64,000 bases of DNA, from IMG/VR virus record IMGVR_UViG_3300010429_002123. One strand, 5' to 3'. The translations under genes and the position numbers were made by a program. Shown here piece by piece: positions 3,247 through 62,915 of the stretch. The notes beneath the pieces are model-generated. The model searched no databases, was not told the DNA's origin, and worked only from the letters and a program-made list of their open reading frames with translations. The DNA comes from a virus (Duplodnaviria > Caudoviricetes). Every line of letters starts with the position of its first letter. Within the stretch, counting starts at the first letter, position 1.

Positions 3247-3358
3247 TCTACTCCACAAGTAGAACCCTTTCTACTCCACAAGTAGAACCCTTTCTACTCC
3301 ACAAGTAGAACCCTTTCTACTCCACAAGTAGAACCCTTTCTACTCCACAAGTAGAACC
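3247..3358. repeat. five tandem 23-bp repeats (TCTACTCCACAAGTAGAACCCTT), candidate origin iterons
   Basis: Units start at 3247, 3270, 3293, 3316 and 3339; internal inverted repeat TCTACT/AGTAGA; non-coding, upstream of two HTH genes. Confidence 0.85.
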
Positions 3359-8834: not shown

Positions 8835-8882
8835 GGGGTAAAGACCTTTAATTCTTTAGGCACGTGTGCTATAATTTAAAGA

Positions 8883-9169
8883 ACATTGATAAAAATAAAA
8901 TAAGTGATAAATCCAGTCACTGACTCGAAGTTAAGTCTTTCTTAAGACTTTTTGAGTCAAAGGCTTAGAAAACTTTCAGTTTAGAGAGAGTGAGTAATTA
9001 AGCCAATCTAGCGGAGTTTCTAGAGAAACATGATTAGTTGGAAAGTACACGCCTTTCTAAGGAAACATATTTAGATGGAAAGGATAGAGAGTTTCCTTTG
9101 AAGAAAAGTTTCTAAAGGAACATGATTAGATGGAAAGTTTTAAAGGAGTAATTATAGTTAGGTGGAAAG
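8883..9169 (+). CRISPR. cassette 1: structured scaffold plus mini-array
   Basis: Scaffold 8883-9015; repeats 9016-9045, 9053-9082, 9108-9137, degenerate 9137-9169; spacers 7 and 25 nt; TGCTATAAT at 8867-8875. Confidence 0.85.
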
Positions 9170-9933: not shown

Positions 9934-9943
9934 TATTTAAAGA

Positions 9944-10144
9944 ACACCAACGAAAACAAAAATAACCGATAAGTCCAGTCGGTGACTCGAAGTTAAGTCT
10001 TTCTTAAGACTTTTTGAGTCAAAGGCTTGCAAAGTTCTCGGTTTATAGAGAACGAGTAATCAAGCCAATCTAACGGGTTTCTAAAGAAACATGGTTAGAT
10101 GGAAAGATTTCATAATTTCTTTAGAAACGTGGTTAGTTGGAAAG
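9944..10144 (+). CRISPR. cassette 2: scaffold plus mini-array
   Basis: Repeats 10077-10106 and 10115-10144; 8-nt spacer. Confidence 0.85.
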
Positions 10145-10254
10145 AATGAGGGTTTGTTGGAGTTTTCGGAGAAAAGACTTTAAAACCCGGTTTTTCGGAA
10201 AGATGGGAAAAGTTTTAAGGTTCAAAAGTGAAAGAATTAATAGGAGGGAACGAC

Positions 10255-12552: not shown

Positions 12553-12614
12553 TTACCAGTAACCCGTGACTGAGTTGCCAAGACCAAAGTCACGGGACTT
12601 ACTCTGGTTAAAAT
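12553..12614. mobile_element. IS200/IS605-end-like hairpin remnant
   Basis: CCCGTGACT...AGTCACGGG stem; near-copy at 39755-39804. Confidence 0.5.
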
Positions 12615-12827
12615 GTAGACAAAAGATTAAAATAAGTGACAAATCCAGTCACTACCTTGAAGCTAAGTCTTAGAAAAGACTTTTTAAGGTAAGGCTTGGA
12701 AAGTTCTCGGTTTATAGAGAATGGGTAATCAAGCCAAACTAACAGGGTTCTAAGGAATTACGGTTAGATGGAAAGCTCTAATCCTTCTCTTGAAAGTGTT
12801 TCTAAAGAAACATGGTTAGATGGAAAG
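12612..12827 (+). CRISPR. cassette 3: scaffold plus mini-array
   Basis: Repeats 12746-12775 and 12798-12827; 22-nt spacer. Confidence 0.85.
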
Positions 12828-17281: not shown

Positions 17282-17752
17282 ATGGAAAGGTTAAAAGTTT
17301 TTATAGGAGAGGACAACTGTTCCTACCCTGTAACGGGAGTAACCTTCACTCCCAAAAAAGAGGCAGAAACAAAAGAAGAACTGATAGCTACAGTAAGCTA
17401 TCTGAAAGAAGGAAACGAAATCACCAGGGCAATTAATCCGAGAGTTGACAGTGTGAGGCTCGGAACAGGTGTTTGTGGTTCGGACGGCCAGGAAATTGCA
17501 GACGGAGACATAGTAAGGGTTGAAAAAACCTTAGATGGGAGAACTCTGGCCTCTCCTGAGTTTTATACTGTCACGTATTTTGCCCATAAGTTTCTTGCCC
17601 GTTCTGTAAAAACAGGACAGCACACCGTTTTTTCGGAGTGGTTACCTCAGGCAACTCACTCCCGGGTTGTGGGTTACGCCGGAAGAGTCTGTTCTAAATG
17701 CATGGCTTCTGAATTAACCTGCAGGTGTAGCAATAGCTACATGTTTAGATGA
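17282..17752 (+). CDS. YopX-like protein
   Basis: TGVCGSDGQEIADGDIV...VVG resembles YopX TG..D.NG.EIYEGDIV. Confidence 0.6.
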   Translation: MERLKVFIGEDNCSYPVTGVTFTPKKEAETKEELIATVSYLKEGNEITRAINPRVDSVRLGTGVCGSDGQEIADGDIVRVEKTLDGRTLASPEFYTVTYFAHKFLARSVKTGQHTVFSEWLPQATHSRVVGYAGRVCSKCMASELTCRCSNSYMFR

Positions 17753-17754
17753 TA

Positions 17755-18022
17755 ACATCGACAAAAGTTTACAATATGTGATAAATCCAGTCATAGTCCC
17801 GAAGTTAACTTCTTTTTAGAAGTTTTTAGGACAAGGCTTACAAAGTTTTCAGTTTATAGAAAACGAGTCAATAAGCCAAACTAACGGGTTTCTTGGAAAA
17901 CATGGTTAGATGGAAAGAAGAGCCTTGTTTCTGAAGAAGCATGGTTAGATGGAAAGAAATTACGGAGTCTTTGTTCATTTCGCTGATACACGGTTTCCGA
18001 GGAAACATGGTTAGATGGAAAG
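17755..18022 (+). CRISPR. cassette 4: scaffold plus mini-array
   Basis: Repeats 17888-17917, 17927-17956, 17993-18022; spacers 9 and 36 nt. Confidence 0.9.
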
Positions 18023-18222: not shown

Positions 18223-18636
18223 ATGTATATGCTTATAGAGCACTTAGAAACACTCTACGAGAACCAGAGGGCACACGAAACTGAGATGTTCCTCCACCCC
18301 CTGAGGGGGAAAATCGTAGGTAAAGAAGAAAAAGATGGGAAAAAAGTCTACCAGATAGACTTTTTTGATGTGGGAATTATAAATAAAACTCATGAAGAGA
18401 TAGAAGACGATATGATAATAGAATTTGAGGACTTCAGTCTCACCATCGACGAAGACTATGGGATAGGTGAGCACGTTCTGGGAGAAATAATCCGTGACTG
18501 TGGCTGTCCCCCGTCAAACGGGGAGACAAAAGGACAGTTTTATATTCAGGTGATAAGAATCGGAGGAAAACCTTCCGACGTAGAGGAAGAGGAGTTAAAA
18601 AGCTCAGTAGACATCGACGAAACTAAAAATAAGTGA
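18223..18636 (+). CDS. hypothetical protein (stop codon lies inside cassette 5)
   Basis: GAGGAGG RBS; 3' end overlaps the scaffold 5' motif. Confidence 0.6.
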   Translation: MYMLIEHLETLYENQRAHETEMFLHPLRGKIVGKEEKDGKKVYQIDFFDVGIINKTHEEIEDDMIIEFEDFSLTIDEDYGIGEHVLGEIIRDCGCPPSNGETKGQFYIQVIRIGGKPSDVEEEELKSSVDIDETKNK

Positions 18637-18938
18637 TAAATCCAGTCACCACCTCGGAGTTAACTTCTCTTTAGAAGTTTCTGAGGTAAGGCTTAGAAAG
18701 TTCTTGGTTTATAAAGAACGAGTAATCAAGCTAAGCTAACGGGTTTCTAAAGAAACATGGTTAGATGGAAAGTGAAATTCTATACTACCCTGAAGAATTC
18801 CTTTAGAAGTTTCTAAGGAAGCATGGTTAGATGGAAAGGTTTCTAAGAAAACATGGTTAGTTGGAAAGGCGATTGTGATAGAAGCGACGTGGTATGTGGT
18901 TAGTAAGGGTTTCTGAGGAAATGTGGGTGGAGAAAAAG
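18611..18938 (+). CRISPR. cassette 5: scaffold plus mini-array
   Basis: Repeats 18743-18772, 18809-18838, 18839-18868, degenerate 18909-18938; spacers 36, 0 and 40 nt. Confidence 0.9.
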
Positions 18939-22371: not shown

Positions 22372-22434
22372 AGTAAATAAACCCTGTTCCCAAGACAGGG
22401 TTTAAGAACGCTTTTAATTAAAAATCTTTTCATA

Positions 22435-22675
22435 GCATCGACGGAAAGTTAAAAATAAACGACAAATCCAGTCGTAGTCCTGAAGTTAACTTCTTTTTAG
22501 AAGTTTTTAGGACAAGGCTTAGAAAGTTTTCAGTGTGTTAGTCACTTAAAGAAAACGAGTAATTAAGCCAGTCTAACGGGTTTCTAAAGAAACATGGTTA
22601 GTTGGAAAGGATGGTAAAAATTCAATAATTGAATCCACCTCATAAATTTCTAAAGAAACATGGTTAGTTGGAAAG
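22435..22675 (+). CRISPR. cassette 6: scaffold plus mini-array
   Basis: Repeats 22580-22609 and 22646-22675; 36-nt spacer. Confidence 0.9.
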
Positions 22676-33302: not shown

Positions 33303-33815
33303 ATGTTAAATCAAAACGGAAAGCAGGCTGTGGAGGAAATAATAAGGATTTTAAGAGAGACTGGTGAGGGACTGGAGACCCCTCACCAACAGATACTCAT
33401 TAAGCAGGCCGAAAGACTCGAAACTATGCTCCCGGCCATGATAAGACCTATGCCCCCGCAAAAAGAGTTGCTTGCGAAGCGTTTTCCTGAGGCAGAACAC
33501 AAGACGAGAAAAGGTGCTCGTGGGAAACAGCTCACCTATGTAGAAACTGTAAATTACATAGACAGGTTAAATGAAATATTCGGCCTGCACTGGAGCTGGG
33601 AACTGACTGAGCAGGGTGCTGACGAAGTAGGTGTGTGGAGTCGTGGAAGGCTCACTATCGAGATAGACGGGAAAACGGTAGTTAAAGAGGCATACGGCGG
33701 GAACGACAAAAATGGAGAAATCGGGGACGCCCTGAAAGGTGCTTCTTCTGACGCCCTCAAAAAAGCCTGTTCACTGCTTGGTATGGGTCTTTACATGTAT
33801 AGAGATAAAAAGTAA
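33303..33815 (+). CDS. Rad52/Sak-like ssDNA annealing protein
   Basis: LTYV...IDRLNEIFG..W...KGASSDALKKA...GMGLYMY. Confidence 0.9.
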   Translation: MLNQNGKQAVEEIIRILRETGEGLETPHQQILIKQAERLETMLPAMIRPMPPQKELLAKRFPEAEHKTRKGARGKQLTYVETVNYIDRLNEIFGLHWSWELTEQGADEVGVWSRGRLTIEIDGKTVVKEAYGGNDKNGEIGDALKGASSDALKKACSLLGMGLYMYRDKK

Positions 33816-39804: not shown

Positions 39805-40201
39805 AAGATTTAAAATAAGATTTTGAACAAGAAGGAGTGGTAAGAGTGGACGAAACCGTCACAAAAGATACACAGACAGCTACGATGCAGACACGGGAAG
39901 GGTATAAAAAGGTTACTAAAATGTACACCTCAAAAGGCAAAGTCATCAGAGAAGACAGCCCCTTACAGGAGACTATCTTTGTTCGAGACTTCTTAGGAAC
40001 CTCAGGAAAAGTTTCCATTAACCTGGGAATGACTCTCTCCCTCGGAGAAGGCACCTATGAATTCGTAAGGGTTGACGTTGGGGTTGAACTTCCCTGTTAC
40101 CCGGAAGAACTAAAAGAAGCAAAAACCACCGCATACGAATTCGCAAAAAGTGAGTTATTTGCGAATGCTCAGGAAGTGAGAGAAAAAATACCAAAGTAAA
40201 G

Positions 40202-40510
40202 ACATCGACGGAAAGTTAAAATACGTGACAAATCCAGTCACTGTCTCGGAGTTAACTTCTTTTTAGAAGTTTCTGAGACAAGGCTTAGAAAGTTTTCAGT
40301 GAGTCAGCCACTTAAAGAAAACGAGTAATTAAGCCAATCTAGCTGGTTTCCGAGGAAACATGGTTAGAGGGAAAGACGATAGGGGTGTTTTTGTCAACTT
40401 TTCCGAAGCTCAGTTTCTTAGGGAACATGTTTAGATGGAAAGTACGCCTCATACCTTTCACCTCGACTTCTCTTGAAAGTGTTTCTAAGGAAACATGGTT
40501 AGTTGAAAAG
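40202..40510 (+). CRISPR. cassette 7: scaffold plus mini-array
   Basis: Repeats 40346-40375, 40413-40442, 40481-40510; spacers 37 and 38 nt. Confidence 0.9.
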
Positions 40511-40548: not shown

Positions 40549-41088
40549 ATGAAAAGAGAAGAGAACGGAAAAATAAAGAAAAAACACGTGCCTGCTAAAG
40601 TATTCCCTCCAGGAGAGTTCCTTAAGGAAGAACTGGAAGAGAGAAACTGGACAAAGGAAGAACTCTCTCAAAAAACAGGGATACCCCAGCAGGTAATAGA
40701 AGACATATTAAATCACAAAGGTGAAGTGACAGAGGAAATAGCTTCTCTTCTCGCTAGAGCTCTGGACGAACCGGAAGATTACTGGGTATGTTTGAGCAGA
40801 AACTACTTCGAGAGAAAAAAAGTCATTGCCCTCGAAGAGTCAAATCCTTGTAGATGCGGGGGAAGGGTCAGACATACAGGAAAGGTATATTATACCGCCC
40901 CGGCTTATTATGAAATGAAGTGTGATGAGTGCGGGAGAATAAAAGACATAAAAGAGGCTCCCAGTATTCCTGTAATAGAGTGTACAGAGGAAGAACTCTT
41001 CAAAAGACATCCTGAGGTGAGAGAACTTTATGAGAAGTTTCCTCATTTACGAAGAAGTGAGTCCGAAAAGACATCGACGGAAAGTTAA
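40549..41088 (+). CDS. HigA-like HTH plus Zn ribbon
   Basis: VFPPGEFLKEELEERNWT...YW; CRCG...CDECG. Confidence 0.75.
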   Translation: MKREENGKIKKKHVPAKVFPPGEFLKEELEERNWTKEELSQKTGIPQQVIEDILNHKGEVTEEIASLLARALDEPEDYWVCLSRNYFERKKVIALEESNPCRCGGRVRHTGKVYYTAPAYYEMKCDECGRIKDIKEAPSIPVIECTEEELFKRHPEVRELYEKFPHLRRSESEKTSTES

Positions 41089-41347
41089 AATAAACGACAA
41101 ATCCAGTCGTAGACTCGAAGTTAACTTCTTTTTAGAGGTTTTTGAGTCGAGGGCTTAGAAATCTTTCAGTTTATAGAAAGCAAGTAATCAAGCCCGGCTA
41201 ACGGGTTTCTGAAGAAACATAGTTAGTTGGAAAGTTAATTGGAATACCCATTTCAGACAGTTTCGAGAGCACGGTTTCTGAAGAAACATGATTAGTTGGA
41301 AAGAAAAAGAAGGTCAAGGTTCTGAAGAAACATGATTAGTTGGAAAA
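41071..41347 (+). CRISPR. cassette 8: scaffold plus mini-array
   Basis: Repeats 41205-41234, 41274-41303, 41318-41347; spacers 39 and 14 nt. Confidence 0.9.
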
Positions 41348-41392: not shown

Positions 41393-44053
41393 ATGAGCAG
41401 AAAAAAAGTATCCCTGGAGGAAACTCTGGCCGCTATTAACAAGAAGTTTGGAAAAGGAACTATAATGCCTGTGAGTGAAGCAAAAAGCCTGAATTACATC
41501 AGAATTCCCACAGGTATTTTTAGTTTAGACGTTGCTGTAGGGGCTGGTTATGGTCTTCCGAGGGGAAGAGTTTCTCTTATAATAGGAGAAAAGTCCACAG
41601 GGAAAACGACTATATGCATGAAGACGATTGCTACCTGGCAGAAATACTGTAGATTCTGCAATACGGAGATAAAAGACCGTATAATAGAAATAGAACCGAA
41701 GGAAGAAATAAAACCCGAAGTAAAAGAAGAGGTAAAACCTGCAGTAAAGGGAGGAAAAAACACCCCTGAACCGGTAAAAGGGAAAAAACCTCCCGAGCCA
41801 CCAAAAGGAAAGAAACCTCCCGAACCTCCGAAAGAAGAGAAAAAGAAAGTTCAAAAAATTGTCACTAAGTGTGAATGTGGTAAAAACAAACGTATGGTCT
41901 GTGTGTATCTCGACGGAGAGGGAACTTATGACCCTCTATGGGCAAGTCATCATGGCGTAGACAATACCTCAGTAATAATGTTACAGCCTGAGTTTGCGGA
42001 ACAGTGTGCTGACGTTGTAGAAGAGCTGATACGCACTGGGGATGTTGACTTAATCATCGTTGACAGTATCGCAGCCCTCGTACCTGCCTCTGAAATAGAA
42101 GCTAGTGCAGAAGACCAGCAAATGGGAACCCACGCGAAAATGGTGAATAGAATGTGCCTGGAAGGAAACCAAAGGGTAATAAACGAGCTTACTGGAGAAC
42201 TTATCCGAGTTAAAGACTTAAAGGCTGGAGTTACGCTTACTTCCGTGGGAGAAGACAATAAAATAAGAAAGAACGTGGTTACAGAAGTGTTTAAAACAGG
42301 TAGAAAAGACTGCCTGAGGATAAACAACACACTGGTTCTCACAAAAGACCACTTAGTTTTTACAGACTCTGGCTGGGTAGAGGCTGGTAAACTCACCCGT
42401 AATCATCTTATCGCAAGACCAAAAAACCTTCCAGTTTTTACCACAGGAACCTCGGACTTTTTTAATGTGGAAGCCCGTCTCCTCGGTTATGCCCTCTCTG
42501 CCGAAGGTAACCCGGAAGCCTGGAAACGCGGGGGTAAGCACGAAGTAGAAGATAAAAGAAGAGCCATAGAGTTCTTTGGAGAAAGACTTCCTCTTCTGAC
42601 CTTTGAAGACTACAGTCAAATACTTTCTTTAGACCTGGGAAAAGCTCCGCATTTGAGAAGGTATAGAGACTTGTTTATAAAACATAACCTGAGTAAAGAG
42701 ACTCTCGGGATTATTCCTAAGGCCATCTTTGGGGGAGATATAACCCAGATAAAAAACTTTATAGAAGCCATGTGGACAGGAGGAGGTCTGGTCAACCCCA
42801 CAGAAAAAACGTTGACTTACTTAACCGTTTCTGAGACCCTGGCTTATCAGTTAAGACATCTCTTATTAAGGTTTGGAGTATGGGCGTCACTCGGTGTAAG
42901 CGAGTTCTCCTCAAGGTCTTACCCCTATGGGAAAAGATACCTTCTTACCGTAGCGGGTAAACAAAATGTGAAGAGATTTTATGAAGCCTTCTCTCTCTTA
43001 GACGAGAAGCAAGACAGGTTAAAAAGAATAGTAGAAAGATGGAAAAATCAATCTGAATTACCTATTCCCGCACAGGAGCAATGCACTAAAAAAGAGGTGG
43101 AAACCTTAATAGCTCTCTTAAAGAAGAAGAAAATATCTGGAACAGATGTTTGTTGCTTCATAGGTCTTTGCCGGAATGCTTACCCGGAGCACAAGGTCTA
43201 CACCTATGAGATATTAAAAAACCTCGTAGTTAAGTTTGGTCTTCAGGAGTTAATTCCTATGCTTGAATCTGACCTCTGGTACGAGCCTATTATAAATATA
43301 GAAGAATATGGGACTGAAGAGGTCTATGACATTTCCATGAAAAATGAAGAAAACTTCCTGTGCGAAGAGTATGTGGTGCATAACTGCAGGGCTCTCAGTT
43401 CCTCTATGAACAGTCTTGGGATAGAGTGCGAGACAAAACCCCATGTAATTCTGATTAACCAGAAGAGAGACAAGCTGGGCTTTTTTGGAGGTACTACCAT
43501 ACCAGGTGGAAAAGGCCAGTGGTACACAGCAGGCATAATAGTAGACATGAGAACCCCCCATAAAATCGGAGAAAACGGAAAGTTAGACCCAAAACAAGAC
43601 AGCAGTGACTATTACAAGACCGTAGAAACAGTAGGCTCCCTTCATAACTTTGAGGTTGTGAAAAACAAGACTTATATCCCTTTTAAACGTGGGTCTTTCC
43701 GCATCTACGGCCAGACTTGTAATAATGAAAGCCTTTCTGTCAGAAAGGGAGAAATAAACACGGAAGAACAAATATTACGTGTAGGTTTAAATACTGGAGC
43801 TATTTTGCTGAGAGGAACCTCCTATGTATTTCAAGACGTTATCTTTGGGATAGGAAAAGAGAAGGCTCTACAGGCGTTAAAAAGTAACCCGGAGTTACAG
43901 GAGAAAATAAAGGTTGTTATTCTGGAAAATATAAAAAGTGAGCTGGCTTCAAGCAGGGATTTATTTGAGGCTAACCAGGACATGCCCGACGGAATAGACT
44001 CCCTGTCTTTTGAACTTATGTCTGAAGAGCCCACAGAAGACAGTGGAGAGTGA
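41393..44053 (+). CDS. recA: RecA-family recombinase with intein
   Basis: IPTG..SLD.A.G, GEKSTGKTT, VDSIAALVP..E, INQ.R, PGG, KNK. Confidence 0.92.
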   Translation: MSRKKVSLEETLAAINKKFGKGTIMPVSEAKSLNYIRIPTGIFSLDVAVGAGYGLPRGRVSLIIGEKSTGKTTICMKTIATWQKYCRFCNTEIKDRIIEIEPKEEIKPEVKEEVKPAVKGGKNTPEPVKGKKPPEPPKGKKPPEPPKEEKKKVQKIVTKCECGKNKRMVCVYLDGEGTYDPLWASHHGVDNTSVIMLQPEFAEQCADVVEELIRTGDVDLIIVDSIAALVPASEIEASAEDQQMGTHAKMVNRMCLEGNQRVINELTGELIRVKDLKAGVTLTSVGEDNKIRKNVVTEVFKTGRKDCLRINNTLVLTKDHLVFTDSGWVEAGKLTRNHLIARPKNLPVFTTGTSDFFNVEARLLGYALSAEGNPEAWKRGGKHEVEDKRRAIEFFGERLPLLTFEDYSQILSLDLGKAPHLRRYRDLFIKHNLSKETLGIIPKAIFGGDITQIKNFIEAMWTGGGLVNPTEKTLTYLTVSETLAYQLRHLLLRFGVWASLGVSEFSSRSYPYGKRYLLTVAGKQNVKRFYEAFSLLDEKQDRLKRIVERWKNQSELPIPAQEQCTKKEVETLIALLKKKKISGTDVCCFIGLCRNAYPEHKVYTYEILKNLVVKFGLQELIPMLESDLWYEPIINIEEYGTEEVYDISMKNEENFLCEEYVVHNCRALSSSMNSLGIECETKPHVILINQKRDKLGFFGGTTIPGGKGQWYTAGIIVDMRTPHKIGENGKLDPKQDSSDYYKTVETVGSLHNFEVVKNKTYIPFKRGSFRIYGQTCNNESLSVRKGEINTEEQILRVGLNTGAILLRGTSYVFQDVIFGIGKEKALQALKSNPELQEKIKVVILENIKSELASSRDLFEANQDMPDGIDSLSFELMSEEPTEDSGE
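42155..43384 (+). mobile_element. intein in RecA (410 aa, degenerate LAGLIDADG)
   Basis: M|CLEGN...TKDH...VYDI...VVHN|C. Confidence 0.9.
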
Positions 44054-45070: not shown

Positions 45071-45557
45071 GTGGAAGACCTCTATGACAACTCCCTCTCT
45101 CTGGGGGAAAAGGTTCTTTACTTCTCTCTGGGAGTAATAACCTGTTGTATATCTGTAAGTATAGTCAAACGGTTGTATAAGGTGACAAAAAAGAGGAAGA
45201 TATATGGGGCTTATCGTTAGAGAAGACCTGGTTCAGGACTTAAAAAACACAGAACAGTTATTGGACAAGACCCTTTCTTTAGCCCGAACGCTTATACATA
45301 AGTATGAACAACCGGGTATGGGGCTGGGGGAAGAACTCCCTTACGAGTTCTGGAACTTGCTCAAAGAAGTAGACTGGACAACGACGTGGTTTCTTGAACA
45401 CGCCTTTGACAAAGAGGAAACCCCTCTTTACACAGACGGCTTACTTCTTTTTGAATCCTGTTGTCTGGGACTGGAAAAACATATGAGAGATACGAAAAAA
45501 CTCTGTGGGATATTTAAGATGATGGCCACACTCTTTCGAGATAAGACCTTAACTATA

Positions 45558-45955
45558 ACATCGACAGAAAGTTAAAATAAGCGACAAATCCAGTCGCAGT
45601 CCTGAAGTTAAGTCTTTTTTAAGACTTTTTGGGACAGGGCTTAGAAAACTTTCAGTTTATAGAAAGTGAGTAATCAAGCCAAACTAACGGGTTTCTAAAG
45701 GAACATGGTTAGATGGAAAGTATGTGGAGACCGTGCACTACATCGACCGGCTTAACGTTTCTAAAGAAACATGGTTAGATGGAAAGCATGGGCAACTTAC
45801 ATTAGTAGCTTCATTGGCAACAAGGTTTCTAAAGAAACATGGTTAGATGGAAAGGTTACTATGTTTCTAAGGAAACATGGTTAGTTGGAAAGATTCGAAA
45901 TAGTCTATATCTACTTTTTTATTGTGTTTTTGAATAAACATGGTTAGTTGGAAAG
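45558..45955 (+). CRISPR. cassette 9: scaffold plus five-repeat array
   Basis: Repeats start at 45691, 45757, 45825, 45863 and 45926; spacers 36, 38, 8 and 33 nt. Confidence 0.93.
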
Positions 45956-50998: not shown

Positions 50999-53900
50999 GT
51001 GCAGATATTACAGACAAGACAGGTCATAGCATTTGATACAGAATACGTAGACCGTGACTTTCCTAACGTTGATGTAGTAGGAATGTCTCTTGCATGGAAA
51101 GAGAACGGCCACGTAGACGGTTGTTACATACCTGTTGGGCACACAACGGGGGAGTCACAGTTACCTATAGAACTCGTTGCCGGGGCTATGAAACCCATAC
51201 TAGAAGACCCCGAAAAATTGATAGTCATGCACAACATGAAAGCTGACATAAAAGCGTCCTGGCTTATGGGTATTTACATAGCGGACGCTCCTTACTGGAA
51301 CGCCCTTCTGAACGAGGGGATTACTATTCCTTACAAAAAAGCCATAAGAGAAACCCACTTATGGGACACCATGCTTGCCTCCTGGATACTCGAACCGGAA
51401 AGAGAAATTTCTCATAAGTTAAAAAAGCTTGTAAAAGAACTTCTCGGGTATGAGATGCAGGAGCTGACAGACTTTGCTCCCAGAGAAAAAGCCTTGTTTA
51501 CAAAAACAGGAAAACCAGTTAAGTTAAAAGCTAACGAAGTTGCCCCTGATGAAACGAAGGTTCAGATATTAAAAAAGAGCAAAAAAGCTCTTCTGAGAGT
51601 AGATAAAGTCCCCATAGCCTCCCTCGGCAGGTACGCCTGGGACGACGCCGTGTGGACTTATAAACTGTATGAATACTTCAAAAACATCATAGAAACCTCA
51701 AATGCGGGGAAGGATAACAAGATTTTCTATGAAGTTCAACTCCCCTTTGCTGTAGTGCTTACGGAAATGGAAATCATAGGCTCTCCCATAGACGTCGCTT
51801 TACTGAAAGACATGGAAACAAGAGCAAAAGCAGAACTGGTAACGATAGAGAATAGGATTTACGAGTTGGCAGGAAAAACCTTTAACATAAAGAGCACAAA
51901 ACAGTTAAATGAGGTGCTTTTTGACACTCTCGGCTTAAAGCCTGAGGGTGACATGAACAAAAAAGGGGAATACTGCACAGACAAAGACGTAATGAGAAAA
52001 TATAAGAGAGAGTATGATGCCTTTAAGGCAGGTCTGCAGAAAAAGGGGGCTGAATGTGAAATAGCCTACTGGATGCTAAAACAGAGAGAGCTTACTAAAC
52101 TCATCGGGACATATCTGGAAGGTCTCGTCCTGTTTGCCAAAAACGGCAGAATTCATACCAGTTTCAACCAGCTTTCAAAAGATGAGAGAACCGGAACAAA
52201 AACCGGGAGGTTGAGTTGCGTGGCTAAAGATACGTTACTCTATGTAAAGACCGGAAGAGGCCGGGGAAAACTTCAGGAAGTTGAAATATCCAAACTTGAC
52301 TTGACCATACCCACGAGAATTATGACATGTGAGGGAAGATATAAACCCATAAACAAACTGATTTTCAAGGGTGAGGACGACCTCTACGAAATAACCACAA
52401 CTGCCGGGTGGAGACTGGTATGCACAAAAGAGCATCAAATCCTAACCCCTCACGGATGGTGGGTATCTGTTGGAGGCTTATTCGTAGGGCAAGAGGTCTA
52501 CGGAAACAAGCATAGGTGCACTCCTACAAACTGCACAGGTTACAAAAGAAGCTTCATAACCGCTATACGTCCCTTTGGAAGAGGGGAAGTATGGGACATA
52601 GAGGTAGCAGAAGACCAGTCTTACTACGCCGGAGGCTTTTTAAACCATAACAGTTCGAATCCTCAAATGGGGCTACTTTCCGGTGACGGAAAGTTAGAAT
52701 CTCTGTTAACTCGGTGGAATCTAAGTTTCTCTCCAGAGGAATATGACAATACCGAGCCGAGCTTCGCAGGAATGCGAAGAAGGTGTAACGACTACCTTGA
52801 TGTAATCTAGAACAGATAGAAAAGGCACGAACACAGAGTATCTTAGGTTGATTACCAAGATTGACAAAATATTTCTCCCGTCTATAATAAGAGCGAGGTG
52901 AAGAAAAATGAGAAATGATTGGACTAAGTCTGAAATAGCGTGGTTCAGAGAAAACTACCCAAAACACGGGTTGCATTACTGTTCTGATATTTTAAAAAGA
53001 ACCACAAGTGCCATTCTAATGAAGGCACATTTATTAGGTTTAAAAAGACGAGGAAAAGGAAGAAAAGACAGGGTGTATACATACGACGGTTACATTACTG
53101 TTTCCTCTGAGGGTGATAGATACCAAGTGCACAGAAGAGTAATGGAAAACCATATAGGAAGGAAACTGTCAACAAAAGAGTTAGTTCATCACAAAGACGG
53201 AAACAGAAAAAACAATTCCATTGAAAACCTAGAAATTTTGTCAAGAAGTGAACACATGAAAATTCACTACCCGCAGAGAATGAGAAATTCAAAAGGTCAG
53301 TTCGCCTAAGATAAAGATATAGTCTGAACTTGCGGGAAACCGCAAGAATTTCAGGATAAAGAGCCTGAAAGGTAACAAAATGAATTTGCAGAACATCTCA
53401 CATAAGTCAGACTATAAGGTAAGGAAAGCCTTTAGTTCTTCCGGGGAAGAGGGCTGGAAATGGCTGAGACTGGATTACTCACAACTGGAGTTAAGAGTGG
53501 GAACTCACTTCAGCAAAGACCCGGAGATGATGAAAGTCTACATGAACGATGGAGACATTCACAGCACCACGGCAAAAGGAAGTTTTAATCTAGACTGTGA
53601 GGCCAGCGAAGTCAAGGCAAAATATCCCGGTTTTCGGGACAAAGCAAAAGTCGTCAACTTCGGTATGGTAAAAAATGCCGAAGCGGGGGAAGATGTAATC
53701 CCCATTAAACCTGCTCAAAACGGGGGAATCCGAAACATAGGCCAAAATCAGCTAAGTTGTGGGCTATCCCGTGCTACTCTTAAGGACAAGCGTAGTGTAT
53801 CGACTTTGCTTACTCGGTGTAGGGTAAGCATAAATAAACCGTCTGTTCTCTACTAATTAGAGAATAAATCAATCGAGTTTATTTACACGGCAGGCAAAAT

Positions 53901-56900
53901 GTGCTAAAGTTAATATAAAGGAGTGGTATGGATGACTGACGGACAGAAACTTTGTAAAAAATGTAAACTACCTTTTATACTAACAGGAAATAATCAACAA
54001 TATTGTCTTTTTTGCAAAGAGGACAGAGCAAGGGAGAGAGGGAGACTTCGTTACAAAAATACCCGCGTAACCCCCGTAAAAAAGGAAAGATTGGTTGGGA
54101 AAAATCACCCGGGGTTTAAAACGGGCGTAGGTCGTAGTTACTATTGTAAACTCGCCTTCTCAACATATGGGAAAATTTGCTGTCTCTGTGGGGGGTTACA
54201 GAACTTATGTGTTCACCACAAAGACGAAAACAGGTTTAATAATGAGGTTGAGAACTTAGAGGTTATCTGCAGAAGATGTCATGCTAAAAAGCACAATCTT
54301 CATAAGTCTTTACCAAAAGGGAATCGGTTGTCAGAGTGCAAAAAAGAGCAAGTAAAAACTTTTAAGAGGGACGAAAACGGAAAATTTATTAAAAAGCACA
54401 TTTAAAGGTATAGTCACACTGTATAGAAATTTACAGAAAAAGGATTTTTTACGGAATGGGACCAAGTTCTCTTGCAGAAACCATAAACAAAGAACTTGAC
54501 GACCCAAGAGACTTTTTAACGGAGGAAGAAGCTAAAAAAGCTATTTCAAACTTTATGGCTACTTACAAAGGCGTTTCACGTTATATTGAAAAATATAAAG
54601 ACATAGCCAGAGAAGTCGGGGTTGTAAAAACCCTGACAGGAAGAGCTCGCCCCTTACCCGCAGCGATGGTTAAGGCTCCCTGGAAAATAGCCGACCCGAA
54701 GGAGAGAAAAAAAGCTATTGAGGAAAAAGGACACGCCGAAAGGGCTGCGGTAAACTGCTTCGACGAAGAAACAGAGGTGCTTTCCCAAAGAGGCTGGCTT
54801 TCTTACAAGAACTTAACTGCCTCAGATGTGTTAGCCACAATAACGGGGGAAGGTGTTTTAGAATGGGACACTCTAATAGCTGTCAGTATGTTCCCGGGCT
54901 ATGATGAACCATGCATAGAGTTCTCTCACCCGGAAATAAGTGCCCTTACAACCAAAAATCACAGGTGGCTTGTATATGACAGAGTAGAAGCCAAAAACTT
55001 TTTTGTAACTACTGAAAATCTTTGTGCCCGGCACGAGATATTAAAAACTGCTACAAACCCACAGAAAGAAGCAGGTATTTCAGACATGGAACTTCTGAAA
55101 CACCCCCTTTCTCTGGAGTTTCTACTAAATCTGTCCCAAAGACAGTGCAGACTTCTTTTAGAAACCCTGATAGGAACAGGGTCTACTTCAATAAGCCCTG
55201 ACCTCTACCAGATACTGTGCTTTTTATCTGGGAAGAGCTATGAACTCTCCTTTAGAAACCTGTCTTCATACGCTGGATACACTCCCGGAAAGGACAGAGT
55301 TTATCTCCTCCCTGAGCACAAAAAAGAGAAAACAGTCTCTTTTGTCTGGTGCCCTACTGTAAAAAACGGGACGGTTGTGGTCAGAAGAAAGGGCACGGTT
55401 TATATCACCGGTCAAAGCCCCATTCAGGGGTGTCTCCCATCTTCCGCTCGAATTCTAACCCTTGAGGGATACAAGACTATAGACAACTTGATAAAGAGTT
55501 ATCCCGGAGAGAGACTGCAGGTATGGACGGGTTTTAACTGGAAACCAGCAAAAGTTCTCCCTATGGGTAAGGCTCCACTCATGAAAGTGACTTTTAAAAA
55601 CGGCTATAGTGTAAAGTGTGACAACCGTCACAACTTTAAAGTCCTTTCCGACAAACTGGAGTGGAAAAATATCTTGTCTCTTAAAGAGGGGGATATGGTC
55701 GCCACTCCTTACGGAGAGCAACACTTCGGGCAATACAACGCGAGAAACCTGGACATCTACAGGGGTAGAAATATTTGTGAACGGAGGTTTGACTATAATC
55801 TTCTCTTTTACCTCTCAGGTTTTCTGCTTTCGAGGGGAGAAATCATAGATGAGGGTGAGAAAACTCACATAAAGATTAGATTTACAACTTCTCTTCTTTC
55901 TAGTCGGGTCATAACCCTTGAAGAAAAAGTAAGAAACGTGCTTGTTAAATCTCTCTTAGAGAATGGAATCCTCTTTACCTGTGAGAGCAGGCGAAGAGAC
56001 GTGGGGACATCCCCCCATTCAGTTGTTGACCTTATAATAACTGACCAGCAGTTGCTTAAAGTTTTCTTAAGAGAGTTTGACGTCAGGAGTGGAAAAGTCC
56101 CTGAGCACATTTATAAGAGTGTCCACCCCTTACGCAGGCTGTTCTTAAAAGGTCTCGTGGAGGGAGGAGGACAACTCGACGGGAATAAAGTAATTCTTAC
56201 TTTTTCTGAACGTAATCTGGCTGAAGAGATAGCCTTTCTCTTAACCTCCGGGGGTTTTGTCTTCGAGGTAAAGAACTCTCCTAAGCTATCTCTATACCAG
56301 ATAACAATACAGCACAAACACGCCTTCCTGGCCTGGATTGGAATTTTCTCCGGCTCTTTCTACAACAGGACGAAGAAAAAATGTCCCGATGTATACATAA
56401 AAGAGTTTTTTGAAAAATTCACCCGAAACGCCAGAGGAAGGGTTACTCCCGGAATAACCCGCCAGTCCTACAGATACAAAGAACTGTTAGAGAAAAGACC
56501 AGAAAAATGCCATTTACATTTCCTGTACAAAATGGCAAGAGATTTCGGAATTGTCTTTGACGAAAAGTATGACTACCTTATAGTAGATAAAATTGAGTAT
56601 CTCGGTGAGGAACAGGAGATGTACACCCTTTCTGTTGACGACGACTTACATCAATTCGTAGCAGACGGGGTAATAGCCAAGAATAGTGCCGCCGACATAG
56701 TCTCAATAGCTATGAGAAACATTCGCCTGAAGCTCATGGAGACCGGAGACTGGTGGAAAAATTGCCAGCTCTTAATCCAGGTGCACGATGAGCTCAATTT
56801 TTTGATAAAGGAAACAGAGATAGAAAGGTTAGTTCCTCTCATAAAAAGTGAGATGGAAAGTGCGGTTAAGCTAAGAATACCCCTGGTGGTGGATTACCTT

Positions 56901-56930
56901 GTTGGGGTGAACTGGTTTGAGTGCAAGTAG
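50999..56930 (+). CDS. polA: family A DNA polymerase; exons ~50999-52663, 53383-53664 and 54444-56930; three inteins
   Basis: AFDTE exonuclease motif; spliced TGRLSSSNPNLQNI, DYSQLELR, AKVVNFGIFYGMG, NSPIQGSAADI, QVHDEL. Confidence 0.93.
52217..52651 (+). mobile_element. mini-intein 1 in Pol (145 aa)
   Basis: LS|CVAKD...TKEH...VWDIEV...NHN|S. Confidence 0.9.
52664..53382 (+). ncRNA. group I intron 1 in Pol
   Basis: Exon ends in U (CCT), intron ends in G; AAGATATAGTC element; splicing restores SNP-NLQNI. Confidence 0.9.
52908..53309 (+). CDS. intron-encoded HNH homing endonuclease
   Basis: HR.VME...VHHKDGNRKNN..ENL; internal promoter TTGACA-16-TATAAT at 52861. Confidence 0.9.
   Translation: MRNDWTKSEIAWFRENYPKHGLHYCSDILKRTTSAILMKAHLLGLKRRGKGRKDRVYTYDGYITVSSEGDRYQVHRRVMENHIGRKLSTKELVHHKDGNRKNNSIENLEILSRSEHMKIHYPQRMRNSKGQFA
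53665..54443 (+). ncRNA. group I intron 2 in Pol
   Basis: P1 CTTCGGT.AT/ATGCCGAAG with U-G pair; AAGGTATAGTC element; terminal G; splicing restores NFG-IFYGMG. Confidence 0.9.
53923..54405 (+). CDS. intron-encoded HNH endonuclease
   Basis: CCLCG...VHHKDENRFNN..ENL...C..CH. Confidence 0.9.
   Translation: MVWMTDGQKLCKKCKLPFILTGNNQQYCLFCKEDRARERGRLRYKNTRVTPVKKERLVGKNHPGFKTGVGRSYYCKLAFSTYGKICCLCGGLQNLCVHHKDENRFNNEVENLEVICRRCHAKKHNLHKSLPKGNRLSECKKEQVKTFKRDENGKFIKKHI
54756..55415 (+). mobile_element. intein 2 in Pol (220 aa, ends Gly-Gln)
   Basis: N|CFDEETEVL...TKNHR...VWCPTV...ITGQ|S. Confidence 0.85.
55431..56684 (+). mobile_element. intein 3 in Pol (418 aa, ends Lys-Asn)
   Basis: QG|CLPSS...MYTLSV...IAKN|S. 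Confidence 0.88.
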
Positions 56931-59387: not shown

Positions 59388-62300
59388 ATGCAAGTAAACG
59401 GATATTTCAGATTAAAGAAGGACCACCCCCTCGTCCCAGAATTCAAAAAAGACTGTGTCCTTCCAAACCCTGAGTATTTAAACAACTTAAAGATGGGAAT
59501 ATCTACAAAGGGTCTTTCCCCCACAGACTTACTCTACGAGCAGGAAGGAGACGAAATTCTCTTTCCCAGAGGAATGGCCAACCGGCTAAAAGGAACAGAA
59601 GACATCAGGGACTCCATGTCTTACGGTAAGGCCGTAAACTTCAAAGAAAGAATAACCCTTCGACCAGGTCAAAAATCTTTTTATGAAAAGTTTGTAAAGG
59701 GTGTTACTGACCTTTATGGTGCCAGTGCTCAGGCCGGGTGCGGACAAGGAAAATGTCAGACACTTTCTACTCCTGTCCTTACGCCAGAGGGGTTCAAAAC
59801 TCTTGGAAACATTCTTCCCGGTGACATGGTAATAGGCCGGGACGGAAAACCCACGAGGGTGTTGCAGACTTTCAGAAACGGAGAAAAAGACTGCTTCAGA
59901 GTAACCTTTAGTGACGGAAGTTTCGTAGACTGTGATGATGACCAGCTATTTCAGCTAAAGAATTCGGAAGCTCCTGTCACTCTTAAGAAAATACGGAACA
60001 GTCCCCCGGAAAAATTGGAAGTCCCTTTGTGTGAACCTGTAGACTTACCGGAAAAAGAGCAGGTGTTCTCTCCTTACTTACTTGGACTTTTGCTCTCAGG
60101 AGGGGCTTTTAAAGAGGGAAAACTCTATCTGTATGACAAGAATGAGCAAGCTAAAAACACGGCAAAAAGTGCCCTTTTAAAAACCCACAAATTAACAGGT
60201 CTTCCGCTGGGAAACAGCAGAACTTTGATATTTGAAAGATTAAAAAATGTTTCGGAGGAACTTGACAAACTCCTCCAAGATTCCCTGTCTTCGCCGGAGC
60301 AACTCAAGAGTGTAGGAGGCTCTTCTTCTAAAATACCTTACAATTACTTATTCGGGAGTAAAAGCCAGAGAAAAGCTCTTCTTCAGGGTGCTCTCGACAT
60401 GGGAGGAAGGGGAAAAGCAAATGTCTGGGACTTCAAAACACAGTCAAGAACCCTGGCAAGAGGGTTAACCTTTCTGGTAAGCTCTCTCGGTGGTACTTGC
60501 ACAAGTTTTTCCAGAGAAAAAACCTACCATCTCAGAATTGTCCTTCCTGAGGACTTCTCCTCCCCGGAAGGCTGCGGGGAAACTCCCCATAAAAAAATAA
60601 AAACAATAGAGCCCATAGGAAAGAAAGAAGTAGGATGTCTATTGGTAGACAATAAAGACCATCTTTATTTAGTAACTGAAACCTGTACAGTAATACACAA
60701 TACAGTGGTGTGTCTAAAAGTAATAGCGTCCCTGCAGAAAACAGCTCTGGTAATTGTGCATAAGACCTTTCTTGTAAACCAGTGGATAGAACGCATACAG
60801 GAATTCTATAATATAGAAGATAAAGACATAGGAATACTCTCAGGAGATGACATAGACTGGGCAGACAAAAAGATAAGTGTGGCCTTAGTACAAACACTCC
60901 TGGCTAAAGACCTCCCAAAAGAGTTCTATAACTACTATGGAACAATCTGTGTTGACGAGGAGCACAGGTTCGGGGCAGGAACCTTCAGAACAGTGATATG
61001 GAGATTTCCCGCAAGATACCGCCTGGGGGTCACGGCAACGCCCACCAGAAACGACTGTCAGGAAAAGGTATTCTTTACACACATAGGAAAAATAGTCTCT
61101 GTAATGTCTGACAGCAGAAAACAGCAGGTGGACGTCCACATGGTAAAAACAAATATTCCTCCCATTACTAACGAGAGACCCTTCTATGACTTCAGAAAAA
61201 AGATAAATCTCACTAAGGTTGTATCCTTCTTAATAGAATGCGAGTCTCGAAACCTTCAAATACTCAACTACCTCGTCAAGGCTGCGGAGAAAGGCCGAAA
61301 AATATTAGTATTAAGTGATAGAAGAGGACATCTGGAAACATTATCTTCTTTATTAAAAGCCTATTGTAAAGCAAATGAACACAAAAACATAAACATTTCT
61401 CAAGGGTATTACATGGGAGGAATGAAGCAGGAAGACTTAGACATTTCTACAACAAAAGACGTGATATTCGGCACTTTTGCAATGGCCTGTATAAGCGAAG
61501 AACAGGACTTTATTGACTACGTGACAGGGGAAACACAGAAATTTAAAAACCTTGTCGGAAAAAGCGTAAACTGCATTACCCATTCAGGAAAGATAACACA
61601 GTCGGGAAAAGTCATTTCTTCAGGTAAAAAAGAGTGCTTTAAACTGACACATTCCTTTGGGGACGTCTTAGCTACGGCAGACCACAAAGTCTTAACCGAA
61701 AAAGGCTGGGAAGAAGTCGCTAAGCTATCTTTACAGAGCCATCTGAGCCTCCCCAAAAAATTGGAAATAGAACAGGTCATAGACACTCCTATAAAAACCA
61801 GCGAACTCTGGCTATTAGGCTGTTTCATAGGTGACGGAAGCATGAGCCAGTATAAAAAAGGGGTCTTGTCGTTCATTTCCGCAGACGAAGACGTCCTAAG
61901 AAACGTGAAAAGCATTTTAGAAACACATAACATGACCCTTAAAAAAGTGCGAAAATACCGTTACAGAGTCTGTGGGGAGGGAAAAAACGGAAAGGGAGTA
62001 AAAACATGGTTAAGACATCAGATAGAAAACCTCGGACTCGGGGTCACGGCACGCAGTAAAGAAATCCCTCAGCCCTTTCTACTTCTCCCGGAACAGAAAA
62101 TAGGAAGTCTGCTCGCTGGACTGTTCGACACAGACGGGTGCGTAACTAAAAGAGGAGAGATACTTTTCTCTTCATCTTCTCAAAAATTAGTAACACAAAT
62201 TAAGTTTTTACTCTGGAGGCTGGGTATTTTTTCAACCCTCTACCCGTCGGCGGAGAATATGATGTTTGTCCTAAGCATCTCCCGGAATTTTAGCGAGCAG

Positions 62301-62915
62301 TTTTTAAAAACTGTCCCGTTAAAACTAAGAAGAAGAAAACAAAGAATAGAAGACTCTATGAGTAAAGGAAGAAGAGTCACAAAAAGCCCTACCAACTATA
62401 TCCCAACGTATTTTACAAAACTTCTTTTTTCTGAACTGAAAAGAAGAAAAATCCGAAAAACGGACATAGTGAGCCTGCTGAAAGAACAAAAAATGTCCTT
62501 TTCATGGGTTAACCACAACAAGGCAGCGGAAAAACAGAGCTTTAGCTTTCTTATTAACTTCTTTCAAATACCGGAGTTAGCAAAAGCCTTAGACTATATC
62601 TGGGCAAAAGTACAAAGCATTGAAAACATGGGGGAACAAAAAGTAGTAGATATGTCAGTGCCTGCTGATAACTCTTTTTTAGCGGGCGAAGCTCTCGTAC
62701 ATAACTGTGAGGGCTTAGATATACCCTCTATAGATACGGTAATCCTCGCCACACCTAAGGGAAGTGTCCAGCAGGCAGTCGGGAGAATAGTCCGGGAAAA
62801 AGCAGATAAAAAAGTATCTAAGGTAGTAGACATGATAGATGAGATAAGTATCTGTAAAGCCCTTTCTTTTAAGAGACTGAAGGAGTATAAAAAGCTAAAG
62901 TATGACATACACTAA
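59388..62915 (+). CDS. SF2 helicase with two inteins
   Basis: GQGK|T, DEEH, TATP.R.D, EGLDIP, QAVGRI.R. Confidence 0.9.
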   Translation: MQVNGYFRLKKDHPLVPEFKKDCVLPNPEYLNNLKMGISTKGLSPTDLLYEQEGDEILFPRGMANRLKGTEDIRDSMSYGKAVNFKERITLRPGQKSFYEKFVKGVTDLYGASAQAGCGQGKCQTLSTPVLTPEGFKTLGNILPGDMVIGRDGKPTRVLQTFRNGEKDCFRVTFSDGSFVDCDDDQLFQLKNSEAPVTLKKIRNSPPEKLEVPLCEPVDLPEKEQVFSPYLLGLLLSGGAFKEGKLYLYDKNEQAKNTAKSALLKTHKLTGLPLGNSRTLIFERLKNVSEELDKLLQDSLSSPEQLKSVGGSSSKIPYNYLFGSKSQRKALLQGALDMGGRGKANVWDFKTQSRTLARGLTFLVSSLGGTCTSFSREKTYHLRIVLPEDFSSPEGCGETPHKKIKTIEPIGKKEVGCLLVDNKDHLYLVTETCTVIHNTVVCLKVIASLQKTALVIVHKTFLVNQWIERIQEFYNIEDKDIGILSGDDIDWADKKISVALVQTLLAKDLPKEFYNYYGTICVDEEHRFGAGTFRTVIWRFPARYRLGVTATPTRNDCQEKVFFTHIGKIVSVMSDSRKQQVDVHMVKTNIPPITNERPFYDFRKKINLTKVVSFLIECESRNLQILNYLVKAAEKGRKILVLSDRRGHLETLSSLLKAYCKANEHKNINISQGYYMGGMKQEDLDISTTKDVIFGTFAMACISEEQDFIDYVTGETQKFKNLVGKSVNCITHSGKITQSGKVISSGKKECFKLTHSFGDVLATADHKVLTEKGWEEVAKLSLQSHLSLPKKLEIEQVIDTPIKTSELWLLGCFIGDGSMSQYKKGVLSFISADEDVLRNVKSILETHNMTLKKVRKYRYRVCGEGKNGKGVKTWLRHQIENLGLGVTARSKEIPQPFLLLPEQKIGSLLAGLFDTDGCVTKRGEILFSSSSQKLVTQIKFLLWRLGIFSTLYPSAENMMFVLSISRNFSEQFLKTVPLKLRRRKQRIEDSMSKGRRVTKSPTNYIPTYFTKLLFSELKRRKIRKTDIVSLLKEQKMSFSWVNHNKAAEKQSFSFLINFFQIPELAKALDYIWAKVQSIENMGEQKVVDMSVPADNSFLAGEALVHNCEGLDIPSIDTVILATPKGSVQQAVGRIVREKADKKVSKVVDMIDEISICKALSFKRLKEYKKLKYDIH
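59754..60701 (+). mobile_element. intein in the helicase P-loop (316 aa)
   Basis: GK|CQTLS...VIHN|T. Confidence 0.88.
61488..62705 (+). mobile_element. LAGLIDADG intein in helicase (406 aa)
   Basis: A|CISEE...FIGDG...FDTDG...LVHN|C. Confidence 0.9.

Follow-up and report, generated by a model that had tools for sequence, protein, structure and literature searches.

The virus record IMGVR_UViG_3300010429_002123 (Duplodnaviria; Caudoviricetes) carries a short array of the type known from clustered regularly interspaced short palindromic repeats (CRISPR) at positions 45691–45955 of the 64,000-nucleotide (nt) stretch analysed here, hereafter the window, which is the minus strand of G000:C1:23699–87698 in the 183,650-bp record, rated 78% complete. 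We propose, with a probability of about one half, that this array is one of at least 13 cassettes that serve the phage's own TnpB-derived, type V-like nuclease, rather than a feed for class 1 machinery of the host. Each cassette would be a domesticated omegaRNA whose final 30 nt were turned into a CRISPR-type repeat, made up of an apical hairpin, the 3′ strand of a terminal helix and a purine-rich ATGGAAAG abutting the guide. The cassette transcript would yield RNAs consisting of scaffold/repeat plus spacer, and these guide RNAs would direct DNA cleavage in competing mobile elements. The arrays gained their new units on the phage genome itself, with exactly 30 bp duplicated and 35–39 bp inserted every time, a pattern that is the signature of a Cas1-Cas2-type integrase, which would come from the host or from a co-resident element.

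The array comprises five 30-nt repeat copies that start with GTTTC and end with ATGGAAAG (consensus GTTTCTAAAGAAACATGGTTAGATGGAAAG), with 1, 0, 0, 2 and 4 mismatches to the consensus from the first copy to the fifth, and spacers of 36, 38, 8 and 33 nt between them (Table 1). A ribosome-binding site follows the last repeat, and then the start of the next gene at 45989. At no more than three mismatches the repeat occurs 18 times in the window, with none expected from shuffled sequence, and at no more than eight mismatches it occurs 26 times, in nine mini-arrays and on the + strand only. A sequence-only reading of this DNA had described 30-nt repeats with spacers of about 36 nt at these positions, which is confirmed by five copies far above the shuffle expectation; its spacer range of 33–40 nt was right for the full-length size class but one nucleotide too wide, as the longest spacer in the genome has 39 nt, and it had passed over the 8-nt pseudo-spacer. 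Its boundaries likewise delimit the array, but this is one of nine in the window, and they omit the scaffold of ~135 nt fused to it at 45554–45690.

The whole record holds 37 repeat copies in 13 arrays, nine of these arrays being in the window, and a conserved scaffold of ~135 nt lies 5′ of every one. The consensus fold of the 13 aligned scaffolds (alignment A1) consists of three hairpins and a terminal helix, with compensatory changes in 16 of its 43 pairs. In the terminal helix, CTAAC of the scaffold pairs with GTTAG in repeat 1 and encloses the 5′ mini-hairpin of the repeat, GTTTC-TAAA-GAAAC, making repeat 1 a piece of a structured RNA rather than a free-standing CRISPR repeat. A covariance model built from the phage copies, R1, recovered every scaffold copy, scoring 198.8 bits for the one of this array (45554–45720), and also detected two diverged scaffolds without arrays, L015:2885–2998 and L110:15514–15645. 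The diverged scaffold within L110:15420–15690 (44 bits with R1, no repeats) lies directly 3′ of a tRNA-like gene and continues into a tRNA-like T-arm and acceptor end. Scans of the window found no Rfam family and no tRNA, the scaffold matched no Rfam family, and a promoter and terminator scan gave one promoter-like site at the scaffold start, not above chance.

The presumed user of the guides is a 774-amino-acid protein whose gene (10228–12552) is flanked on both sides by arrays, at 10077 and 12746. The protein matched phrog_506 (E = 5e-27) and the NCBIfam guided_TnpB model NF040570 (E = 1.9e-14, under the model's cut-off), and the RuvC motifs GIDIG, IEKVN and QRDMYSA (D/E/D) are readable in its translation, from which the zinc-finger cysteines are missing. 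Its nearest relatives are TnpBs of ~490 amino acids from Firmicutes and Fusobacteria, 37–48% identical over the core, one of which adjoins a Y1 transposase; the closest protein relative, P0003, has 521 amino acids and is 48% identical. NCBIfam assigned it to no named Cas12 subtype, giving the general TnpB model below its cut-off, no solved structure matched it in sequence, and a search for relatives in IMG/VR returned only ordinary TnpB loci without arrays for P0001 and none for P0003. Judged by its sequence, the locus is of type V in character, with a single RuvC effector of TnpB ancestry beside a repeat-spacer array. The cassettes are probably linked to this nuclease, which would use their guides and target DNA. 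A second TnpB-family open reading frame, at L017:1456–2079 on the minus strand (G000:C1:158583–159206), encodes 207 amino acids corresponding to the C-terminal RuvC half (guided_TnpB, E = 1.7e-36); another cassette is ~1.1 kb away, and the gene may be truncated or split.

The repeat itself points to the omegaRNAs of IS605-type TnpB elements. The best R1 matches outside the phage, L020:10967–11103 (E = 0.07) and L022:1123–1257 (E = 0.97), lie directly 3′ of related tnpB genes, on the correct strand and over the full length of the model. In both, a terminal hairpin (TATATC-loop-GATATA) followed by TTGGAAG aligns with the phage CTAAC-[hairpin]-GTTAG-ATGGAAAG, the hairpin and UUGGAAG of the relatives standing opposite CTAAC...GTTAG-AUGGAAAG of the phage, in which the loop of the terminal hairpin is ~15 nt longer. 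Within the repeat, it is the 3′ half (GGTTAG-ATGGAAAG) that corresponds to the terminal helix of the omegaRNA with its subsequent (U)GGAAG motif. In the reverse test, the model R2, built from the omegaRNAs of six relatives only, matched four phage scaffolds (best E = 0.04) at the exact scaffold positions and on the correct strand, and in L115, the nearest relative, it also matched the scaffold (E = 2e-7). In addition, the sequence blocks AAAG-CTT-GAAAA and helix plus GGAAG are common to the phage scaffold and the omegaRNAs of the relatives. These alignments suggest that the 3′ half of the repeat, including its apparent handle ATGGAAAG, was probably inherited from a transposon omegaRNA.

The locus of P0003 bears on how such a repeat end is to be read. 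Downstream of the P0003 gene, on a 2-kb contig (L115:1737–2056, JGI 3300077563), an omegaRNA-like scaffold with a 15-nt anti-repeat (CAATCCCTTTGTATA) is accompanied by two 37-nt repeats that end with ATTGAAAG and enclose a spacer of ~36 nt, the layout of a split pair, a tracrRNA (trans-activating CRISPR RNA) together with a crRNA (CRISPR RNA). Within this TnpB clade a GAAAG-type end beside the guide therefore recurs as a trait and is not a mark of class 1 systems, and alone it is no indication of class 1 machinery.

The arrays grew where they stand. Repeats agree at 26.3 of 30 positions within arrays versus 25.2 between arrays, a within-array value that none of 5000 permutations reached, and some variants are private to one array, such as CG at positions 6–7 in all three repeats of one and G11 together with G27 in another, which implies that units were duplicated in place after the cassettes had dispersed. 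Across the 13 arrays there are 16 full-length spacers of 33–39 nt (median 36), 15 of which fall within 35–39 nt, and the exact 30-nt duplicated unit together with these narrow spacer sizes fits an integrase that measures by a ruler. The repeat farthest from the scaffold is, in several arrays, the most degenerate one, with T at position 23 in place of the A of proximal repeats, an indirect sign of the polarity that copying of the first repeat into new units would produce.

An integrase of this kind was sought in the phage itself. Profiles of Cas1, Cas2, Cas4 and Cas6 found nothing in the 183.65-kb record, while control genomes responded. The phage could be followed for 56 kb beyond the record start along an ENA contig whose overlap with the record is 99.99% identical, and the precomputed Pfam domain lists of this extension contain no cas adaptation gene. 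Searches with phmmer, using Cas1, Cas2 and Cas4 proteins of three class 1 loci that find each other, gave nothing in any frame of ~240 kb, the Cas6 search covering the record. The sequence-only reading had named phage-encoded cas1/cas2 outside the window as evidence against borrowed adaptation, and none was detected in the ~240 kb; any integrase that built the arrays would thus have come from outside, in trans. Its suggestion that host Cas1-Cas2 supplied the spacers is plausible and unproven, favoured by the missing cas1/cas2 genes and by units duplicated in place, with no acquisition event caught. Insertion of the spacers by Cas1-Cas2 acting in trans has, in our estimate, slightly less than an even chance. 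The fuller version, in which a class 1-type Cas1-Cas2 of the host adopted the last 30 nt of the omegaRNA and inserted foreign fragments of ~36 bp at a dozen dispersed copies, we consider a tentative and rather unlikely extension. The same phage has a second array without cas1, ~35 kb past the record start (L109:17231–19320, ENA ERZ795055 NODE_212), where a gene for an IscB-type protein of 534 amino acids with RRXRR and HNH domains is followed on its 3′ side by seven 37-nt repeats (GTTTCAGTAATCAG...CTATGAAAC). The repeats of this array have another length, and its spacers (32–39 nt) are of the same length; perhaps it too was filled by a class 1-type Cas1-Cas2 of the host.

Spacer 1 offers a view of where spacers come from. 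It reads in frame as YVETVHYIDRLN, a peptide conserved across the Rad52 family, and the phage's own Rad52 gene encodes the counterpart YVETVNYIDRLN at 33537–33572. The best translated match was to this gene and scored 58, whereas 150 shuffles reached at most 46, and 25 of 36 nt agree, the 11 mismatches lying mainly at third codon positions. Two homologues from sister samples, P0128 and P0123, have the spacer 1 peptide or a one-residue variant and each match it at 26 of 36 nt. Each of the three Rad52 genes sampled diverges from spacer 1 at third codon positions, and a degenerate codon pattern for its source found nothing in IMG/VR. On this codon-level comparison, spacer 1 is a piece of a foreign gene of the Rad52 family, an unsampled and more GC-rich member, and not of the phage's own gene, which makes it a spacer taken from another virus or mobile element. 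An origin in a close relative of this phage was considered and rejected, as the true source is unsampled and the homologues match at only 26 of 36 nt. Given that spacer 1 corresponds to the sense strand, the pairing partner of its guide RNA would be DNA, not mRNA. In a sister sample (ENA ERZ27257490), L119:1–9268 is a different mobile element that encodes a Rad52 homologue with the exact spacer 1 peptide (26 of 36 nt in the DNA), serine recombinases, a Prim-Pol and a DUF669 protein, and represents a candidate class of targets. For spacers 2 and 4, cultured phages and plasmids returned nothing significant and IMG/VR no match; for the other spacers, comparison with the proteome of the phage itself and with the 56-kb extension gave nothing above background.

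Several observations weigh against the proposed origin and use of the cassettes. Neither a Cas1-Cas2 donor nor the host has been identified, and the genome is not closed, so that a small unseen part could hold cas genes. No protospacer was found in the searches above, and hence no protospacer-adjacent or transposon-adjacent motif. The covariance-model E-values across families are individually weak (0.04 to 1), but the R1 and R2 matches agree in place, strand and reciprocity, which makes chance unlikely. The omegaRNAs of the relatives extend ~45 nt beyond GGAAG to the transposon end (AAGAACCCCAC...GGGAGTNTCAG), a tail that the phage cassettes are missing, which leaves the guide junctions short of strict equivalence. 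Of the spacers in the 13 arrays, one third (n = 8; 0, 7, 8, 8, 9, 14, 22 and 25 nt) are short, unlike integrase products, and the last 14 nt (CTTCTCTTGAAAGT) are common to spacers 12776–12797 and 40443–40480 of different cassettes. Finally, the array is base-for-base identical in both other assemblies that span it (ERZ795055 and JGI 3300019210).

The last of these points is a weak test, as the compared assemblies appear to represent one strain. Contigs of SRR5007150 and SRR6960540 show no difference over the part that they cover, which ends at repeat 1 or before it, and a fifth assembly (ENA ERZ27257480) is identical over window positions 1–22 kb except for one tandem-repeat count, that of a perfect 23-nt repeat with 4.9 copies at 3247–3358. 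The sequence-only reading had proposed to look among related phages for polarised spacer gain, and no turnover was seen in what is apparently one strain; what the arrays do show is that distal repeats are more degenerate and carry the T23 variant.

The alternative that survives best dispenses with Cas1-Cas2: the arrays would be fossils of an ancestral complete CRISPR-TnpB locus, or would be reshuffled only by phage recombination, slippage and gene conversion, and would be decaying. The identity of the array among assemblies and the many degenerate repeats suit this alternative, as do the shortened spacers, some of which contain repeat-like debris (for example GTTTCCTTTGAAGAAA in the 25-nt spacer 9083–9107), and the phage is rich in candidate recombination genes (Rad52, RecA/UvsX and resolvases). 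The common 14-nt end in particular implies that recombination between cassettes also shapes the arrays and, together with the shortened spacers, that deletion and exchange between cassettes occur; we infer that the short spacers are products of such decay. General recombination, however, would hardly produce an exact 30-nt unit with 35–39 nt in 15 of 16 full spacers, the private variants within arrays record duplication after the cassettes had dispersed, and the full-length spacers are unique but for one pair. We consider it unlikely that no integrase acted.

A second alternative takes the class 1 likeness at face value, in that the repeat would copy a type I-B/III repeat of the host, to which host Cas1-Cas2 adds spacers, with Cas6 cutting to leave an 8-nt handle and class 1 effectors using the guides. 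The likeness noted in the sequence-only reading is real and extends to a 30-nt repeat, spacers of 33–39 nt, a GTTTC start, a GGAAAG end and a degenerate distal repeat. The canonical tag of class 1 (type I-B/III) repeats is AUUGAAAG; the phage repeats end with ATGGAAAG, one base off this tag (7 of 8 positions), or with TTGGAAAG (6 of 8). The failure to detect cas1/cas2 in the phage would also suit borrowing from the host, and known viral mini-arrays carry repeats identical to those of the host and target related viruses (PMC11656645).

Searches for a host repeat did not bear this alternative out. Among species genomes (185,579 species, one genome each), a pattern of two 30-nt units with a GTTTC start and a TGGAAAG end gave seven loci, with real arrays of 30-nt GTTTC...ATGGAAAG repeats in one Thermotogota genome and one WOR-3 genome, both of which encode Cas1. 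Their repeats agree with that of the phage at 20 and 16 of 30 positions, 12 of which are fixed by the pattern, and no cas genes were found around these arrays within the short loci. A looser pattern (the last 12 nt, twice) in JGI metagenomes yielded 47 loci, none above 20 of 30; scans of IMG/VR with the repeat core, the scaffold motif and a loose two-repeat pattern gave chance matches only; and 151 Thermotogota genomes held no match within three mismatches. One candidate, L044 (Treponemataceae), looked like 30-nt repeats with 8-nt gaps and was rejected as a plain 38-nt tandem repeat. These scans are to be read with the limits that the patterns required exact ends, that arrays assemble poorly and that the phage host is not identified.

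The idea that the 3′ end of the scaffold mimics a host repeat accordingly found no host counterpart in the species genomes, JGI metagenomes and IMG/VR collections searched, an outcome that the sequence-only reading had itself named as refuting it. As the omegaRNA's terminal helix and tail line up with the repeat's 3′ half, its class 1 'handle' is probably an inheritance and not mimicry. Borrowed processing by host Cas6 is unnecessary, as the cassettes are apparent omegaRNA derivatives, two of which flank the phage's own TnpB-type nuclease gene. Against service to class 1 effectors further stands the embedding of the repeat in an omegaRNA-type scaffold, and the crRNA of the sense-strand spacer 1 could not pair with mRNA as type III requires. 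We therefore regard a copied host repeat as improbable; the class 1-like look is probably in part inheritance, in the 3′ half of the repeat, and in part the footprint of an integrase ruler. Least probable is a role of the repeats chiefly as decoys, RNA anti-CRISPRs that would sequester Cas proteins of the host: the many repeat copies in the genome and the units with spacers of 0–9 nt do resemble the solitary repeat units of viruses (PMC11656645), but a decoy needs a host repeat to imitate, which the scans did not find, and has no need of a conserved omegaRNA scaffold or of 16 full-length, virtually all unique spacers.

Table 1. Features of the array at 45691–45955, its sister cassettes and associated genes (window positions)
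Feature	Position	Strand	Description
omegaRNA-derived scaffold (putative)	45554–45690	+	three covarying hairpins and 5′ strand (CTAAC) of terminal helix
Repeat 1	45691–45720	+	5′ mini-hairpin, GTTAG (3′ strand of scaffold terminal helix), ATGGAAAG
Spacer 1	45721–45756	+	36 nt, 53% GC; sense-strand Rad52-family fragment, encodes YVETVHYIDRLN
Repeat 2	45757–45786	+	identical to consensus
Spacer 2	45787–45824	+	38 nt; target not found
Repeat 3	45825–45854	+	identical to consensus
Pseudo-spacer GTTACTAT	45855–45862	+	8 nt; below guide length
Repeat 4	45863–45892	+	2 mismatches; T at position 23
Spacer 4	45893–45925	+	33 nt, AT-rich; target not found
Repeat 5, degenerate terminal repeat	45926–45955	+	4 mismatches
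Sister cassette	8877–9137	+	scaffold and 3 repeats; spacers 7, 25 nt
Sister cassette, directly upstream of nuclease gene	9939–10144	+	2 repeats; 8-nt spacer
TnpB-family, Cas12-like nuclease, presumed guide user	10228–12552	+	774 amino acids; profile matches, RuvC motifs
Sister cassette, directly downstream of nuclease gene (omegaRNA position)	12609–12827	+	2 repeats; 22-nt spacer
Sister cassette	17751–18022	+	3 repeats; spacers 9, 36 nt
Sister cassette	18606–18868	+	3 repeats; spacers 36, 0 nt
Sister cassette	22432–22675	+	2 repeats; 36-nt spacer; scaffold stem 3 with extra hairpin
Phage's own Rad52-family gene	33303–33815	+	Pfam Rad52_Rad22, E 4e-13
Sister cassette	40198–40510	+	3 repeats; spacers 37, 38 nt
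Sister cassette	41067–41347	+	3 repeats; spacers 39, 14 nt

The genome has further features of note. Intein and LAGLIDADG domains occur in a RecA/UvsX-like recombinase, a split family A DNA polymerase and a helicase (41393–44053, 50999–52810, 54456–56930 and 59388–62915), with more inteins beyond the record in ribonucleotide reductase and a cytosine methylase. At the record end (L016:13480–13650), another non-coding repeat unit (...AATCCATAAAAAAACGACTTTTTTGTATAAAG) with a period of ~68 nt runs off the end.

Set beside described systems, the phage locus reads as closest to the published transposon-CRISPR intermediates, TranC (Jin et al., Cell 2025, as summarised in PMC13565253). As far as that summary describes them, TranC effectors too are nearer to IS605 TnpB than to the named Cas12 types and longer than TnpB, and their guide RNA likewise derives from an omegaRNA whose 3′ part became the crRNA repeat. 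In the phage, correspondingly, the scaffold appears homologous to the omegaRNA of related TnpBs, with the repeat as its 3′ module, a relation that is reciprocal at weak E-values. Unlike in TranC as summarised there, the first repeat is fused in cis to the scaffold in an unsplit RNA, and the cassettes are multiplied and scattered through the phage genome.

Cas12r of the Thermus Lalka phages is likewise a TnpB-derived nuclease encoded by a phage and has a short array whose degenerate repeats measure ~29–30 nt, with spacers aimed at other mobile elements and no adaptation genes; for it, Trofimova et al. tentatively propose adaptation by the type I-E system of the host, on the basis of agreement in repeat length, spacer length and some repeat sequence (bioRxiv 10.64898/2026.04.20.719267). 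In Cas12r, one array lies beside the gene, a crRNA alone is used and the guide is 5′ of the repeat part, whereas this phage has at least 13 arrays in dispersed positions, every one joined to a scaffold of omegaRNA type and with its guide 3′ of the repeat. The collections searched yielded no host repeat of common sequence, and the phage protein belongs to another branch of TnpB. With the viral mini-arrays (PMC11656645) the phage arrays share one to four spacers, the missing adaptation genes and at least one spacer from a gene of another element; those mini-arrays have host-identical repeats and rely on host effectors, while this phage, without a host counterpart in the searched collections, brings its own effector and scaffold. 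Acquisition in trans has a precedent in the type IV-A3 plasmid CRISPR, which, as cited in PMC11656645, acquires spacers via the type I-E Cas1-Cas2 of the host (Benz et al. 2024) and is likewise a mobile-element CRISPR that has no adaptation module and relies on a co-resident integrase; there, by that account, the evidence is experimental and the compatible host system known, whereas acquisition in trans is here our inference.

The locus bears on how the guide RNAs of TnpB and IscB gained repeat-spacer arrays, and on who fills the arrays of phages and plasmids that have no cas1. It offers a concrete substrate for both questions, with a repeat that appears traceable base by base to an omegaRNA tail, growth after dispersal and no integrase detected in the ~240 kb examined. 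Use of the scaffold–repeat 1 junction by a host Cas1-Cas2, if shown, would make the descent of a type V array from a transposon RNA open to direct bench tests; should there be no integrase of this kind, spacers of ~36 bp must be captured by a new route. Should host Cas1-Cas2 indeed act at the dispersed copies, the cassettes would form a multi-locus adaptive system owned by the phage, and the step from omegaRNA to array would have been caught.

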